Shown in pieces: positions 9,271 to 26,018 of a DNA stretch of 64,000 nt. Source of the DNA: Thermodesulfobacteriota bacterium. GTDB taxonomy: Bacteria > Desulfobacterota_D > UBA1144 > Nemesobacterales > Nemesobacteraceae. Under the pieces are notes generated by a model, which saw nothing but the letters and a program-made list of their open reading frames with translations, ran no database searches and was not told the origin of the DNA. A program made the position numbers and the translations under genes. Within the stretch, counting starts at the first letter, position 1; the number at the start of each line of letters is the position of its first letter. The stretch covers positions 802,241 through 866,240 of the forward strand of contig OY763921.1 in assembly GCA_963667625.1 (NCBI GenBank). The letters run 5' to 3'.

Positions 9271-10134
9271 ATGTTCAGAGAAGTAAAATCCCGGGTTCTT
9301 GCTTTCGACATAGAGTGGGTTCCAGACCCCGAGTCGGGAAAGGCCGCGTACGGACTTCCTGGAGATATGCCCGACCGCGAAGTGATCGAGTTCATGTGGG
9401 AGCAGGGCGGGGCGACCGAAGAAGAGCCAATGCCGTTTCTCAAGACGGTTCTCTCAAAAATAGTTTCCATCTCGATGGTCTTTCGCGAATCGGAAAGAGA
9501 CGGAACGGCTTCAAGACTCAAGCTTCACTCGATTCCGTCGATTCCGACCTCTGAAGAGGATTGCTCGGAGAGAAGAATCATAGAAGATTTCTTCAGGATT
9601 CTCGACAAGCACCACCCGCAGCTTGTGGGATATAACTCTTCGGGTTCCGACATACCGATTCTGGCACAGAGAATGATCAAGCACGGGCTCCAGGGCGGTT
9701 TTTTCACCCAGAGACCCAACAGGCCTTGGGAAGGAGCTGATTTCTTCGCCCGCGGAAGCGACTGGAACGTCGATTTGATGCGCTGCGTGAGCGCATGGGG
9801 GAAAGGCACCCCGTCTCTTCACGAAATATCGGTTGTAAGCGGAATCCCGGGCAAGATGGAGGGAGTCGATGGGAAGCAGGTCGCCCCAATGTGGCTTGAA
9901 GGAAAACTTGACGATATAGTCGCCTATAACGAGTGTGACGCTCTTACGACCTATCTTCTGTGGCTCAGGATGGCCCACTCGATCGGACACTTCGATTCAA
10001 ATCAGTACGCGGAGGAACAGCGCCTGCTTCGCGACATGATAAAGCAAGAGTCTGAGAGCCCTCAAAGGCGCCGGCATCTTCTGAGTTATCTCTCAAAGTG
10101 GGAGAGCCTGAGCGGGGTAGGGGTGGATGAGTAA
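9271..10134 (+). CDS. Predicted 3'-5' exonuclease of the RNase H-like/DEDD type, PolB-exonuclease-like (COG3298-like)
   Basis: Exo I-like LAFDIEWV and Exo III-like YNECDALTTYLLWL (YxxxD) motifs. Assignment is by motif memory. Confidence 0.55.
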   Translation: MFREVKSRVLAFDIEWVPDPESGKAAYGLPGDMPDREVIEFMWEQGGATEEEPMPFLKTVLSKIVSISMVFRESERDGTASRLKLHSIPSIPTSEEDCSERRIIEDFFRILDKHHPQLVGYNSSGSDIPILAQRMIKHGLQGGFFTQRPNRPWEGADFFARGSDWNVDLMRCVSAWGKGTPSLHEISVVSGIPGKMEGVDGKQVAPMWLEGKLDDIVAYNECDALTTYLLWLRMAHSIGHFDSNQYAEEQRLLRDMIKQESESPQRRRHLLSYLSKWESLSGVGVDE

Positions 10135-15938: not shown

Positions 15939-16220
15939 CTATTTCCCCATACCGCCCGCTCCGGTGGGTCTTGTATCTCCGAGGTTTTCTATATGCGCGC
16001 TGATGAATTCCTCGGCGTGATCAAAGCAGAAATAGTAGGAAAGAAGGGTGCTGCCGCTTCGGTTGACCGTGATCAGCTGGTAGTGGCGGCTGCAGATATC
16101 TATTCCGCACCTGACGCACTCCTTGATCTGGTTCCTTTCTCCCGAAAGTTCGCATCGCTCTCCTCCGGGACTTACGTGATCACACTGGTATATTTCAACT
16201 TCTATTGTTTTTACCGACAA
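15939..16220 (-). CDS. Small Cys-rich (zinc-ribbon-like) hypothetical protein, 93 aa, TTG start
   Basis: Zinc-ribbon-like cysteine spacing CDH...C and CVRCGIDIC. Strong SD GGGGAGGT 9 nt upstream of TTG. Own promoter upstream. No homology recognised. Confidence 0.4.
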   Translation of the reverse strand: MSVKTIEVEIYQCDHVSPGGERCELSGERNQIKECVRCGIDICSRHYQLITVNRSGSTLLSYYFCFDHAEEFISAHIENLGDTRPTGAGGMGK

Positions 16221-16337: not shown

Positions 16338-16892
16338 CTATTTCCTGTCCCATAGACCGAGTTTCTCCAACATCCATCGCAGGTCGCTATCGTACAGGGC
16401 TGCGCGTCGAATATCTTCAATTCGGAAACGTTTGCGCAGATCTTCGGCGGATGCCGGTTTACTATAGTTCTGCCAAAGTCTCTGCAGATTCCGTTTGGCT
16501 TCATCCGCTGTTGGAAACTGCTTTTCCCGACCGGTGTGGAGTCTTAGGAGCAGCCCCTCAAAATTCGGTTTCAGGTAAACCAGTTTCAGGTTTTCCGAAT
16601 TCGCTTTTGGTTCAGGATCACGGCCAGACTGTATGTCCTGTTGAAGCCGGTCGGAATCGAGCAGTATCAGCCCGCTTGAGAATTTACCTCTGCTCTGGGT
16701 GCGTTTGCGATACTCATAAACTGCGTGTTCGGTGATTGTAAGACTGTCTCCGCCATTACTGACAGTTATGTCGAAGTGAAAGCTAACACCTTGTTCCTCG
16801 CAGAGGATTCTCAGCCACTTTGCGAGTGAACGTTCACTTTCGCCCTCTGCACCGACAAATATGCGTTTTCGTTTAGGATGTCGCCGGACCAT
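16338..16892 (-). CDS. RloB-like (PF13707) TOPRIM/OLD-nuclease-like protein, AbiLii-like
   Basis: The N-terminus KRKRIFVGAEGESERS matches the RloB consensus (basic stretch, then ILIVCEGEKTE). A DxD is present in LILLDSDRL. The gene lies 3 bp downstream of the ATPase gene. Confidence 0.7.
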   Translation of the reverse strand: MVRRHPKRKRIFVGAEGESERSLAKWLRILCEEQGVSFHFDITVSNGGDSLTITEHAVYEYRKRTQSRGKFSSGLILLDSDRLQQDIQSGRDPEPKANSENLKLVYLKPNFEGLLLRLHTGREKQFPTADEAKRNLQRLWQNYSKPASAEDLRKRFRIEDIRRAALYDSDLRWMLEKLGLWDRK

Positions 16893-16895
16893 CTG

Positions 16896-18107
16896 TCAGC
16901 CGAAAGTGGGCAATCCTCCCAAGGAGCCGCTGCGGTACTGTTTCTGAAGGCTTCCGCCGCGTCGCAGACCTTGGACGTTGCGTAACCCGTATGCGCGCGT
17001 AACGCCGCCGAGATCCTTCTCGACTATGTACACTTCTTCCTTTTCCAGGTCGTCAAGTATGGCCGGGTTATGTAACGAGCAGATCAACTGGGCATTGTTC
17101 GGATTGGTTTCTTTTCTTCGGAACCAGTTGAGGATCTCCAGCACGAGTTCCGTGTGAAAGTCGGAGTCAAGCGAATCCATGATTGCCAGGCCTCCTGTTT
17201 CGAGAACATAGTTAATCAGAGGGAATATGCGTGCCAGATTGCGCGTACCTGCTGACTCAGCCTCAAGTACGACAGGTACGTCCAGCCCCTGATGTTTGAA
17301 AATCATCATCCATTGGGCATCCGAAATTTGTGATATATCCAGGTATTCAATTCCAAGGTCAAAACGTTGCAGCTTTTCGGAAATTTTGTTCACAAGTTCG
17401 GGATTCTCTCTATATGCGCGAATTACCGCATCCGTGTCTGGACGCCACGGGTCGGCGCCCGCAACATTGGTTGATATGTTACGCAGGTCCTGAGCCAATT
17501 TGGGAAAGGGTTCCACCCCCATTCTGTCAAAAGCCGAGATTGCCGAAGCTTCAGACGGAACGGCAGACAGGCGATTGTCACTTGGGCTTACCTTCAACTC
17601 CCTTGCCACATAGATCGGCTTGCCTGGTTCTCTCTCAAGGAGGCGCCGGGAGCGACCCTTGGGAAAGGAATAAATAGATTCGTATTTGACGCCGGGATTT
17701 GCGGCGTTTAAACCGTTCCTGTGAACCTCAAGAACATATCGGTAAAGAGAACCTGTATCACCTATGTTGGGACCAAACCACTTCGTGTCAAATTCCAGAC
17801 CGATTCTAGTAGGCCGGGTTATCATTTCCTGCTCTAGAAACGGGATAAATGACTTGACCGTATTAGAGCCCGAATCATAATAGGAATTTGCGGCGAAGGA
17901 CATGGTTGCGACCAAGGAACGCAGCAGGGTTGTCTTTCCCGAACCGTTGGGTCCGAACATAGCGATTACGCTTGGAAGGCGAATTTCCGGCTGATATGGA
18001 TTCCTCCGGAAACAATCTAATTCAGGGGTTGTGCCGGGGATGCGGAAATCAAGCGATATTTCTTCCCTGACGGATTGGAAATTGGATACCTGAAATTTAT
18101 GTATCAT
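16896..18107 (-). CDS. AAA_21/ABC-type ATPase, AbiLi-like (also OLD/PARIS-AriA-like); track ORF extends to 18218 but the Met at 18107 (MIHKFQVSNFQS...) is the likely start
   Basis: Walker A FGPNGSGKTTLLRSL. The typical AAA_21 N-terminus has the shape I..L.I.NF.S. A D-rich Walker B region is present (LAIMDSLDSDFH). Confidence 0.7.
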   Translation of the reverse strand: MIHKFQVSNFQSVREEISLDFRIPGTTPELDCFRRNPYQPEIRLPSVIAMFGPNGSGKTTLLRSLVATMSFAANSYYDSGSNTVKSFIPFLEQEMITRPTRIGLEFDTKWFGPNIGDTGSLYRYVLEVHRNGLNAANPGVKYESIYSFPKGRSRRLLEREPGKPIYVARELKVSPSDNRLSAVPSEASAISAFDRMGVEPFPKLAQDLRNISTNVAGADPWRPDTDAVIRAYRENPELVNKISEKLQRFDLGIEYLDISQISDAQWMMIFKHQGLDVPVVLEAESAGTRNLARIFPLINYVLETGGLAIMDSLDSDFHTELVLEILNWFRRKETNPNNAQLICSLHNPAILDDLEKEEVYIVEKDLGGVTRAYGLRNVQGLRRGGSLQKQYRSGSLGGLPTFG

Positions 18108-18384
18108 AAAGCTATCTCTACAAATATTTGTTATATAGAAATGATAATACCCTAAAACGAAGCAGTCAAGAATAGTTTTTAGCAAAAAAATATTCTGTGT
18201 TTCTTGCTGCTTTGACAAACAGGTTCAGTCGTATTGGAGGAGAAAAGATCTAGGTCGCGATTTTACGGGCAGGTTAAATTCTCGCATAACGGTTTTCGGC
18301 TGGATGATCAATGGAAGCAATGGTTGCTGAGCAAGAGTTGGTAATTTGCGCGGATAATTTATAATAGACGGAAGGATAGAGTTA

Positions 18385-19353
18385 ATGATACATCCAAGAC
18401 AGGCCGTAAGCGGCACATTAAAATATTTCTACATCAAGGCCACCGGAAGGCCGAAGCTCCTTAATCTTGAGATAACAAAGCTTTGCAACGCCCGCTGCGA
18501 TTTCTGCGACTACTGGCAGACAAAACACGAAGAGCGCCTTTCCGACTACACTCCGGTAATAAAGAAGATAAATCCCCTCGTCACGGTTATCACGGGCGGG
18601 GAACCCATGATCAGAAAGGATCTTCCCGATATCGTGAGGCAGGTAAAGGGGTGCTCGATATTCATTTTCACTTCCATGGTCACCAAGGGAGATTTCCTTA
18701 CCGAGGAGAAAACCGAAGAGCTTTTTGATGCGGGGATGGATCAGATTGCCGTTTCCCTTGATTTCCCCGGCGAAAAGCACGATACCTACAGGGGCATTCC
18801 GGGCCTCTGGAAAAAACTGTCAGAAACCCTGCCGGAACTGGCGGAGCGGTTTCCTGACAAAAGCCTCGTGCTTAACACCATAATAATGGAAGATAACCTC
18901 GATGAGGTGGTCGACATAGCGAAGAAGGCTAGGGAGTGGGGCATAGCAATCTCCTTCAGTTCCTACTCGGTCATGAAGACCAACAACGAAGACCATTTCG
19001 TGAAAAAGGAAGCCCTCTCGAAGGTAAAGGACCTTGTCGAGGAACTGATTGCGCTTCGAAAGGAGTGGAAGGGAACGATACTCTCGACTGAGTACTACCT
19101 GAAGGAAATTCCGGGTTATTTCGAGAAGGGAAGCGTTCCCGACTGCCTGGCCGGAATCAATCAGATACACGTTACCCCGAGCGGTCACTTAAAACGCTGC
19201 TCTGAGATGCCCGTAGCTGCCCACTACAGCGATTACAAGCCGGATCTTTACGGTAAAACCAAGTGCACTTCCTGCTGGTACAGTTGCAGGGGGGAGACCC
19301 AGAGCCCGGCGAACGTCAAAAGGGCCATGGAATATATGGGAATCTATATCTAG
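18385..19353 (+). CDS. Radical SAM protein with a Cys-rich C-terminal (partial SPASM/twitch-like) extension; substrate unknown
   Basis: The CxxxCxxC motif CNARCDFC follows LNLEITKLC. The C-terminal cysteines are C...CTSCWYSC. Divergent from the ATPase/RloB pair. Confidence 0.75.
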   Translation: MIHPRQAVSGTLKYFYIKATGRPKLLNLEITKLCNARCDFCDYWQTKHEERLSDYTPVIKKINPLVTVITGGEPMIRKDLPDIVRQVKGCSIFIFTSMVTKGDFLTEEKTEELFDAGMDQIAVSLDFPGEKHDTYRGIPGLWKKLSETLPELAERFPDKSLVLNTIIMEDNLDEVVDIAKKAREWGIAISFSSYSVMKTNNEDHFVKKEALSKVKDLVEELIALRKEWKGTILSTEYYLKEIPGYFEKGSVPDCLAGINQIHVTPSGHLKRCSEMPVAAHYSDYKPDLYGKTKCTSCWYSCRGETQSPANVKRAMEYMGIYI

Positions 19354-21194: not shown

Positions 21195-22733
<1,539 letters not shown>

Positions 22734-22808
22734 TTCACGGAGATATCTGTCTTTTTTTCGCTCGCCATCTGCTTTTTATAAAAAAGTATTTGCGCTTATA
22801 AGGCAACG

Positions 22809-22885
<77 letters not shown>

Positions 22886-22888
22886 CTA

Positions 22889-22961
22889 GGGGGTGTAGCT
22901 CAGTTGGGAGAGCGCCTGCTTTGCAAGCAGGAGGTCGACGGTTCGAGCCCGTTCACCTCCA
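22889..22961 (+). tRNA. tRNA-Ala (anticodon TGC) with the G3:U70 identity pair; CCA not encoded
   Basis: GGGGGTGTAGCTCAGTTGGGAGAGCGCCTGCTTTGCAAGCAGGAGGTCGACGGTTCGAGCCCGTTCACCTCCA. Confidence 0.9.
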
Positions 22962-22998
22962 TAGAAGAAGAATTTTTGAATGCTTTTTTGATCTTTGA

Positions 22999-23018
22999 CA
23001 ACTGAATATAACGCTGAG
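22999..23018. repeat. 5' half of the 23S processing stem (pairs with 26059-26078)
   Basis: caactgaatataacgctgag is the perfect reverse complement of ctcagcgttatattcagttg at 26059-26078. Confidence 0.7.
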
Positions 23019-23064
23019 AAACAGAATTGATCGTGTTGTTAGTATTATCGAGGATTTTCATGCC

Positions 23065-26018
<2,954 letters not shown>

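Follow-up and report, generated by a model that had tools for sequence, protein, structure and literature searches.

What do two adjacent genes on the minus strand of a Thermodesulfobacteriota contig, lying a mere 3 nt apart, encode, and how did they come to occupy their present site? The stretch of DNA analysed here, which we refer to as the window, comprises 64 000 nucleotides of contig OY763921.1 (assembly GCA_963667625.1), and the genes in question are an upstream gene at positions 16896–18107 (minus strand), encoding 403 residues, and a downstream gene at 16338–16892 (minus strand), encoding 184 residues. An earlier model, which had only the letters of the window and their open reading frames (ORFs) before it, had taken them for an AbiLi/AbiLii-type pair of an ATPase and an RloB protein; this sequence-only reading is supported by hidden Markov model (HMM) searches, profile–profile comparison, structure prediction and gene neighbourhood, and the peptide motifs that it quoted were all found in the window. 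We consider it likely that the two genes form a self-contained AbiL-type (RloA/RloB-like) module made up of an ATP-binding cassette (ABC) ATPase and an RloB-type TOPRIM nuclease. What goes beyond routine annotation is only the loss, throughout the subfamily to which the ATPase belongs, of the glutamate of the Walker B motif.

The order and spacing of the genes could be read directly from the sequence: the TGA stop codon of the ATPase gene (16898–16896) is followed by the trinucleotide CAG (16893–16895, minus strand) and then by the ATG of the small gene at 16892, as the first description of two same-strand genes 3 bp apart had it. Comparably tight spacing is found in related loci from independent assemblies (L001–L005, where, for example, one gene call ends at 9997 and the next starts at 10001). 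A gap of 3 nt implies that the pair would be co-transcribed, and translational coupling is probable. The mechanically delimited ATPase ORF runs from 16896 to 18218 and opens with TTG, but all homologs begin with MIH or MLH at the position of the window ATG at 18107, and we therefore place the start there; a longer protein initiated from the TTG is ruled out by the N-termini of the homologs. Thus, of the span originally proposed for the pair (16338–18218), the small gene stands at 16338–16892, whereas the start of the ATPase gene moves from the TTG at 18218 to the ATG at 18107.

The upstream gene

In searches of the PADLOC models, the ATPase matched AbiLi with E=1e-56 (190 bits), those for AriA (E=8e-18), HEC-01A (E=2e-15) and PtuA all lying far below, and it scored 63.1 bits against Pfam AAA_21 (cutoff 27, E=6e-17). 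The AlphaFold2 model, built on 27 homologs, had a pLDDT score of 86.9, and its best matches in Foldseek were Septu PtuA, Rad50 heads, retron PtuA and the Thermus (Ts) OLD protein, with E-values from 1e-11 to 4e-10, the closest solved structure being PtuA 8eea (E=1e-11). Because the model lies nearest to PtuA, Rad50, retron PtuA and OLD, the enzyme is of the ABC/SMC–Rad50 type, and the combined results show the product of the upstream gene to be an ABC/Rad50-like ATPase that belongs to the AAA_15/21 group. The HMM check that had been proposed for this protein thus returned both AbiLi and, above its cutoff, AAA_21, and an ATPase fold was modelled.

The nucleotide-binding motifs are strongly conserved. 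The Walker A motif, or P-loop, GPNGSGKT (residues 52–59; 17931–17954, minus strand), which had already been recognized together with an AAA_21-like N-terminus, has Gly52, Asn54, Gly57 and Lys58 invariant among the 27 homologs, and it is kept in all 137 of the ATPases that we retrieved. The signature-like motif ESAGTR is likewise invariant in the 27 homologs, as are Asp311 (the Walker B aspartate), Asp314, His318 and His346 and approximately 70 further alignment columns; His346 lies in the H-loop CSLHN (residues 343–347; 17067–17081, minus strand; alignment A2). The positions of the two histidines recall the P2 OLD protein, in that His318 sits seven residues past the Walker B aspartate, like the D-loop histidine of P2 OLD, and the spacing between H-loop and Walker B resembles that between D299 and H332 (PMC7049728).

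The downstream gene

The assignment of the small protein had to be approached through its family. The protein begins MVRRHPKRKRIFVGAEGESE and contains LLDSD; a search of NCBIfam with it gave no match, and its profile against the sequences of the PDB gave only matches at chance level (phosphoglycerate mutase, E=0.024). A word-indexed search yielded 36 relatives. When the profile made from these was run exhaustively with HMMER against 1.84 billion representatives, the number of representative clusters rose to 838 at E<=1e-3, with 140 of them at E<=1e-30. Aligned by hhalign to the RloB protein of the Agrobacterium plasmid pAtK224a, the family profile matched over its full length (180 columns) with a probability of 99.5% and E=8e-23; the plasmid protein itself passes Pfam RloB (37.6 bits), and its gene adjoins one for an ATPase that is 33% identical to that of the window. 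Pfam RloB was matched by 12 of 27 close relatives and by 31 of 43 diverse representatives of the small protein (best E=1.3e-12), and, among the same 27 relatives, 15 matched PADLOC AbiLii and eight matched HEC-01B. A few relatives also matched DUF4276 or DUF3226, two related families of TOPRIM-like proteins.

Structure prediction, proposed at the outset as a check on the 184-residue protein, gave an AlphaFold2 model (pLDDT 93.8) with an alternating β-α-β-α-β-α-β core, and the protein superimposes on OLD-family TOPRIM structures. Toprim and RloB domains are diagnosed by a glutamate after strand 1 and a DxD motif after strand 3 (PMC12065111), and in the model strand 1 comprises residues 9–15, with Glu16 directly after it, and strand 3 comprises residues 73–79, so that Asp79 and Asp81 close it. 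Glu16, the predicted TOPRIM catalytic glutamate, lies in the loop after strand 1 in the segment E16-G-E-S-E20 (part of AEGESE; 16833–16847, minus strand); Glu16 and Gly17 are invariant both in alignment A1 and in the 43-sequence alignment A5, the latter including representatives merely 29–49% identical to the window protein, and Glu20, a possible ligand of a second metal, is nearly invariant in A1 only. In the DxD motif D79-S-D81 (16650–16658, minus strand), Asp79 is invariant and Asp81 is conserved in at least 90%, so that the conserved glutamate and DxD pointed out in the initial reading were correctly identified. A third acidic position follows strand 4 in P109-N-F-E112 (PNxEG; 16557–16568, minus strand), where, among the 43 diverse representatives, Glu112 is invariant and Pro109 is conserved in at least 90%. 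The layout of E-x3-E, DxD and a further acidic residue parallels that of the residues that bind metals A and B in P2 OLD, including the spacing of E398 and E402 (PMC7049728), and by likeness to the metal-B acidic residues of OLD we infer that Glu112 may be catalytic, as a candidate second-metal ligand.

These results show that the downstream gene encodes a small RloB-family TOPRIM protein, with membership established at the level of family and profile only. The RloB/TOPRIM call is supported by profile–profile comparison, family and predicted structure, but the single sequence remains under the Pfam RloB cutoff, and automated defence finders may therefore overlook the system.

A Walker B motif that lacks its glutamate

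In canonical ABC ATPases, a catalytic glutamate directly follows the Walker B aspartate. The sequence-only reading had described a D-rich Walker B region in the window ATPase, and such a region does exist (LAIMDSLDSDFH, residues 307–318; 17154–17189, minus strand), comprising the Walker B motif and D-loop, but it is not canonical, since the catalytic glutamate is replaced by serine. The motif reads LAIMD-S, the modelled strand (residues 307–310) directly precedes Asp311, residue 312 is serine, and Asp311, Asp314 and His318 are the invariant positions. The replacement is not peculiar to the window: the Walker B motif could be located in 134 of the subfamily ATPases that were retrieved, and glutamate occurs at this position in none of them, the residue being Ala in 87, Ser in 42, Asp in three, Pro in one and Gly in one. 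In contrast, the D-E pair is retained in all six of the more distant RloB-partnered ATPases that we compared, which come from a Magnetococcales metagenome-assembled genome (MAG; 37% identity) and from plasmids of Agrobacterium, Sphingobium, Vibrio, Shewanella and Prevotella.

Because the Walker B glutamate is replaced by Ser or Ala, the ATPases of the subfamily probably bind ATP and hydrolyse it slowly or not at all. The corresponding mutant of PARIS, AriA E393A, is ATPase-defective (PMC11464382), and Bacillus GajA (BcGajA), an OLD-family ATPase, naturally binds and senses nucleotides without hydrolysing them (PMC10568477). It is possible, although we hold it doubtful as yet, that the subfamily constitutes a distinct and previously undescribed AbiL subclade of more than 130 ATPase clusters, all of them chromosomal and mostly from uncultured marine (probably sponge-associated) MAGs, in which the Walker B glutamate has been permanently lost. 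If so, the ATPase would be an ATP-binding, non-hydrolysing latch or, like GajA, a sensor of nucleotide level, gating a minimal 21-kDa RloB TOPRIM nuclease, and this branch would have a defence ABC ATPase that is naturally in an ‘EQ-like’ state and for which hydrolysis is dispensable. The replacement is in effect a natural experiment on whether the ABC-ATPase sensors of OLD-, PARIS- and AbiL-like systems need ATP hydrolysis or binding alone, a question that the HEC study left open.

The pair as a single evolutionary unit

Each of the 21 related loci has the ATPase gene directly upstream of the small gene, which is intact in 19 of them, and the identities of the two partners to those of the window co-vary from locus to locus (99/96, 88/88, 86/81, 68/69, 66/67, ~55/52 and 37/38%). 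The more distant ATPase relatives on plasmids likewise adjoin genes annotated as RloB, and when the flanking ORFs were compared all against all, no third gene proved to be conserved from lineage to lineage. For both genes, the ratio of nonsynonymous to synonymous substitution (dN/dS), determined against loci L004 and L008, is 0.13–0.22 (0.13–0.20 for the ATPase), similar to the values for tsaE and nnr; both genes are under purifying selection. The pair is thus shown to behave as a single evolutionary unit. In one entry of the representative library (P0243, 584 residues), an AAA_21 domain (residues 1–344) and an RloB-like domain (401–583) are found in one polypeptide, which is either a natural fusion of both module genes, built in the manner of OLD, or a gene call produced by read-through.

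The two loci in which the small gene is not intact, both from MAG chromosomes, retain an intact ATPase gene. In L020 (5995–6542) the RloB gene is frameshifted, and in L021 (5975–6100) it stops after approximately 25 residues, with low-complexity sequence in its place; the damage reflects either decay of the effector or errors of long-read assembly. Frameshifted or truncated copies at two loci are what would be expected for an accessory gene.

The distribution of the pair is wide and thin. We found it in at least eight genomic contexts, from Spirochaetia, Thermodesulfobacteriota, Alpha- and Gammaproteobacteria and Magnetococcales, and a pattern scan, which gives a lower bound, found it in at least 14 of 185 579 GTDB species representatives; the plasmid and phage collections contained no relative above 34% identity. 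Nearly all carriers of the subfamily (loci L008–L021, drawn from GTDB) are uncultured MAGs, several of which have sponge-related names, namely Langseth_MAG, APA_bin and Candidatus Porisulfidus, and the phylogenetically distant hosts of L008 and L015 stem from the same study (SRP338948). These names, together with two papers, suggest that the module is common to members of marine-sponge microbiomes.

Transfer and inheritance

The pair had been described as horizontally acquired, and on a deep timescale this is borne out. Homologs at 50–69% identity occur in MAGs labelled Thermodesulfobacteriota, Alphaproteobacteria, Gammaproteobacteria and Magnetococcales, in unrelated neighbourhoods (CMD/HAD genes in L003, prmC/gatB in L005, and others), and the closest labelled relative of the window is an uncultured Spirochaetia bacterium. 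The G+C content at third codon positions is 0.50–0.54 in the pair against 0.59–0.66 in the flanking genes. On such a timescale, the module appears to be accessory and mobile.

Within the clade of the window itself, the acquisition claim does not hold, and inheritance at one site takes its place. In the clade, the loci that extend to the site number five (L001, L002, L004, L008 and L024), and the pair has the same position in each: it is flanked on one side by an orf93–nnr–tsaE series and on the other, in those loci long enough to include it, by the radical-SAM gene. A metagenome scan with nnr gave three close relatives; one of these has the pair, and the contigs of the other two stop short of it. 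Beyond the clade, the nearest relatives of nnr are only 40–45% identical. The identity of the pair within the clade (81–88%) matches that of nnr and tsaE (85–87%). Because the site is the same and the divergence matches that of nnr and tsaE, the transfer predates the divergence of the clade: within it the pair is vertically inherited and core-like, and the transfer is old. A comparison of synteny had been suggested as a check, with a core-like distribution counting against an acquired defence module; what we find is core-like within this narrow clade, and sparse and patchy beyond it.

The synonymous divergence (dS) of the pair from L008 is 0.25–0.27, below the 0.41–0.61 of nnr, tsaE and aspartate kinase, although against L004 it is comparable to that of the flanks. 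The lower value could be caused by recombination of the module within the clade, or by different codon constraints.

Proposed mechanism and alternative explanations

The literature groups AbiL with the defence systems that pair an ABC ATPase with a TOPRIM protein (PMC11464382; PMC13064643), and by analogy with these we infer that the function of the pair would be anti-phage. If PARIS, OLD and Gabija are a guide, the ATPase would oligomerise, sense infection and hold the TOPRIM nuclease inactive until a phage-derived trigger releases or activates it; the nuclease would then use two-metal catalysis to cut host or phage nucleic acid, possibly tRNA or DNA, so that translation or replication halts and the infection aborts. 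In the subfamily of the window, ATP would serve as a structural latch, a bound cofactor or a signal of nucleotide level, rather than as fuel.

Several observations weigh against a defence module of this kind. The small protein of the window scores only 17.5 bits against Pfam RloB, where the cutoff is 31.5, and its match to PADLOC AbiLii (E=0.0037) is likewise under threshold. The pair is fixed at one locus in the clade and evolves like the neighbouring core genes, which is atypical of defence islands with their fast turnover. Moreover, the lactococcal AbiL is the only validated AbiL, and its mechanism is obscure (PMC13064643), and HEC-01, a related ATPase and TOPRIM candidate, gave no protection in assays (HEC study).

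The compactness and self-contained nature of the pair, and its spread by transfer, would also suit a toxin–antitoxin or addiction module, in which the small nuclease would be the toxin and the ATPase the antitoxin, the whole stabilising itself and having no dedicated anti-phage role. PARIS is formally of this type, since AriB is toxic and AriA neutralises it (PMC13064643), and the lack of defence activity of HEC-01 points in the same direction. We nevertheless regard this explanation as unlikely, because the ABC ATPase and TOPRIM pairs characterised so far are all phage defence systems, and because a pair that is chromosomally fixed and vertically inherited in its clade leaves little for addiction to stabilise. 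The decay of the small gene, the presumed toxin, in L020 and L021 beside an intact ATPase gene fits both explanations alike, and toxin–antitoxin behaviour and abortive infection are not mutually exclusive.

The very features that make the pair core-like within the clade, namely its constant position between nnr and the radical-SAM gene in five loci, its nnr- and tsaE-like divergence and the purifying selection on it, could be taken to indicate a housekeeping role in the repair or processing of nucleic acids, similar to RecF/RecR or RNase M5 and core to the lineage, and TOPRIM domains are indeed found in RecR and RNase M5 as well. However, a housekeeping gene pair would not be expected to be so sparse (at least 14 of the 185 579 species representatives, and 838 clusters in 1.84 billion), to have homologs of 50–69% identity in unrelated phyla and contexts, or to include degraded copies of the small gene (L020 and L021). 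The best family matches are, furthermore, to the defence models AbiLi, AriA, PtuA and HEC-01, and there was no match to any housekeeping equivalog of NCBIfam, all of which makes such a role very improbable. Equally improbable is an inactivated remnant, in which the lack of the Walker B glutamate would have put the ATPase, and with it the whole system, out of action: this residue is missing in 134 of 134 subfamily ATPases, and the equivalent E393A change leaves AriA ATPase-defective, but the loss is ancient and is shared across a large and diversified clade whose Walker A motif and D-loop and H-loop histidines are invariant, both genes have dN/dS values of 0.13–0.22, the catalytic residues of the nuclease are invariant, and BcGajA demonstrates that a non-hydrolysing OLD-family ATPase can still function.

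Surrounding genes

Upstream of the ATPase gene, an intergenic region (18108–18384) separates it from the divergent radical-SAM gene. The region had been described as AT-rich and as a divergent promoter region, and its G+C content is indeed 0.37, against a window mean of 0.50, with promoter-like sites on both strands. A consensus scan found a sigma-70-like match TTGACT-17-TATCAT at 18141–18169 on the minus strand, with 10 of 12 positions matching and lying 33 nt upstream of the ATG of the ATPase gene, and a second at 18338–18365 on the plus strand, directed toward the radical-SAM gene; these are pattern matches to the sigma-70 consensus, and the host may use other promoter types.

The radical-SAM gene (18385–19353, plus strand) matched the PADLOC pVip model with 47 bits, through the generic radical-SAM core only. 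It scored 40 bits against NCBIfam viperin_w_prok, for which the cutoff is 180, and its best family was of the PTO1314 type (93 bits against 306); it is 95–96% identical in the clade relatives, above the conservation of nnr. With a viperin score below cutoff, and with the gene absent from the other contexts of the pair, both a viperin and a part of the module could be ruled out.

Between the RloB gene and nnr lies an ORF of 93 residues (15939–16220, minus strand) with a TTG start and a GGGGAGG Shine–Dalgarno sequence, the product of which is rich in Cys and His (CDH...C...CVRCGIDIC...H...CFDH). It is 72–99% identical in the clade relatives, with a dN/dS of 0.08, and searches of Pfam, PADLOC and NCBIfam gave no match; it has the appearance of a genuine small protein, zinc-ribbon-like and specific to the lineage. 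We considered it as a third component of the module and rejected it, since it is conserved within the clade only and is absent beside the pair elsewhere.

On the far side of the radical-SAM gene, nothing lies between it and cysS in the window; the two genes are convergent and overlap there by 4 nt (19350–19353). In relatives that are 96–99% identical, the interval between them (L001/L002, 6204–7517) contains an ADP-ribosylglycohydrolase gene with or without a MazE-like antitoxin gene, and in another relative (L004, 4076–7452) it contains a gene for a 994-residue LRR/PKD protein, so that the interval adjoining the defence pair is, among close relatives, a variable insertion hotspot. Just past cysS, approximately 3 kb from the module, lies a complete rRNA operon (21195–26016, plus strand) with 16S rRNA, tRNA-Ile, tRNA-Ala and 23S rRNA genes; no 5S rRNA was reported within the window at the gathering threshold.

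Comparison with known systems

Among other ABC ATPase systems, Septu provides the nearest solved structure for the ATPase, in PtuA, but its effector is the HNH nuclease PtuB rather than a TOPRIM protein. In OLD and GajA (Class 1/2 OLD nucleases), one polypeptide carries both domains and an additional helical one, whereas the domains of the window pair are encoded by two genes, fusions such as P0243 being rare, and no UvrD-like helicase adjoins the pair. HEC-01, a PADLOC candidate, likewise combines an ABC ATPase with a TOPRIM protein, but the match of its HEC-01A model to the window ATPase is far exceeded by that of AbiLi, and HEC-01 sits embedded in Hma loci.

The description of the pair as the split form of PARIS had to be abandoned: PARIS (AriA/AriB; Class 4 OLD) is itself already split, and AbiL is a sister branch of it. 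The PARIS effector AriB is a DUF4435 protein of approximately 35 kDa, whereas the effector of the window is of the RloB type and of 21 kDa; DUF4435 (PF14491) was matched neither by the small protein nor by its relatives, the matches of which were to RloB, DUF4276 and DUF3226, and no significant sequence similarity has been reported between AbiLii and AriB (PMC13064643). PARIS AriA also has an active Walker B glutamate, E393 (PMC11464382), which the subfamily of the window does not, and the trigger (Ocr) and target (tRNA-Lys) of PARIS have no established counterpart in AbiL-type pairs.

The AbiL system of Lactococcus lactis and the RloA/RloB genes of Campylobacter resemble the window pair in being operons of two genes, of which the first encodes the ATPase and the second the RloB-family protein. 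The likeness to AbiL is seen through the PADLOC models, the ATPase scoring its 190 bits on AbiLi and the family of the small protein grading into RloB/AbiLii, and a published model of AbiLii superimposes on OLD-family TOPRIM structures, as does the window protein (PMC13064643). In the account given in PMC13064643, which cites Deng 1999, abortive-infection resistance has been shown for the lactococcal AbiL only; this AbiL was not among the 73 plasmid hits of our PLSDB search. The window copy differs in falling under the RloB and AbiLii thresholds, in being chromosomal in uncultured marine MAGs rather than plasmid-borne, and in belonging to an ATPase subfamily that lacks the Walker B glutamate, which the more distant RloB-partnered ATPases keep. 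Its small protein, at 184 residues, is short, the plasmid RloB neighbours of related ATPases being comparable or longer (171–239 residues).

Apart from the loss of the Walker B glutamate, this is one more ordinary defence module in a bacterial chromosome. Its value lies in being a minimal, uncluttered and strongly conserved case, from a Spirochaetia-like lineage of uncultured marine bacteria, that annotation by thresholds would probably miss, of a class of pairs that are recognised as phage defence but the mechanism of which has not been worked out. The comparisons support the sequence-only reading in its essentials: the closest known system is AbiL/RloAB, of which the window pair is a divergent member.

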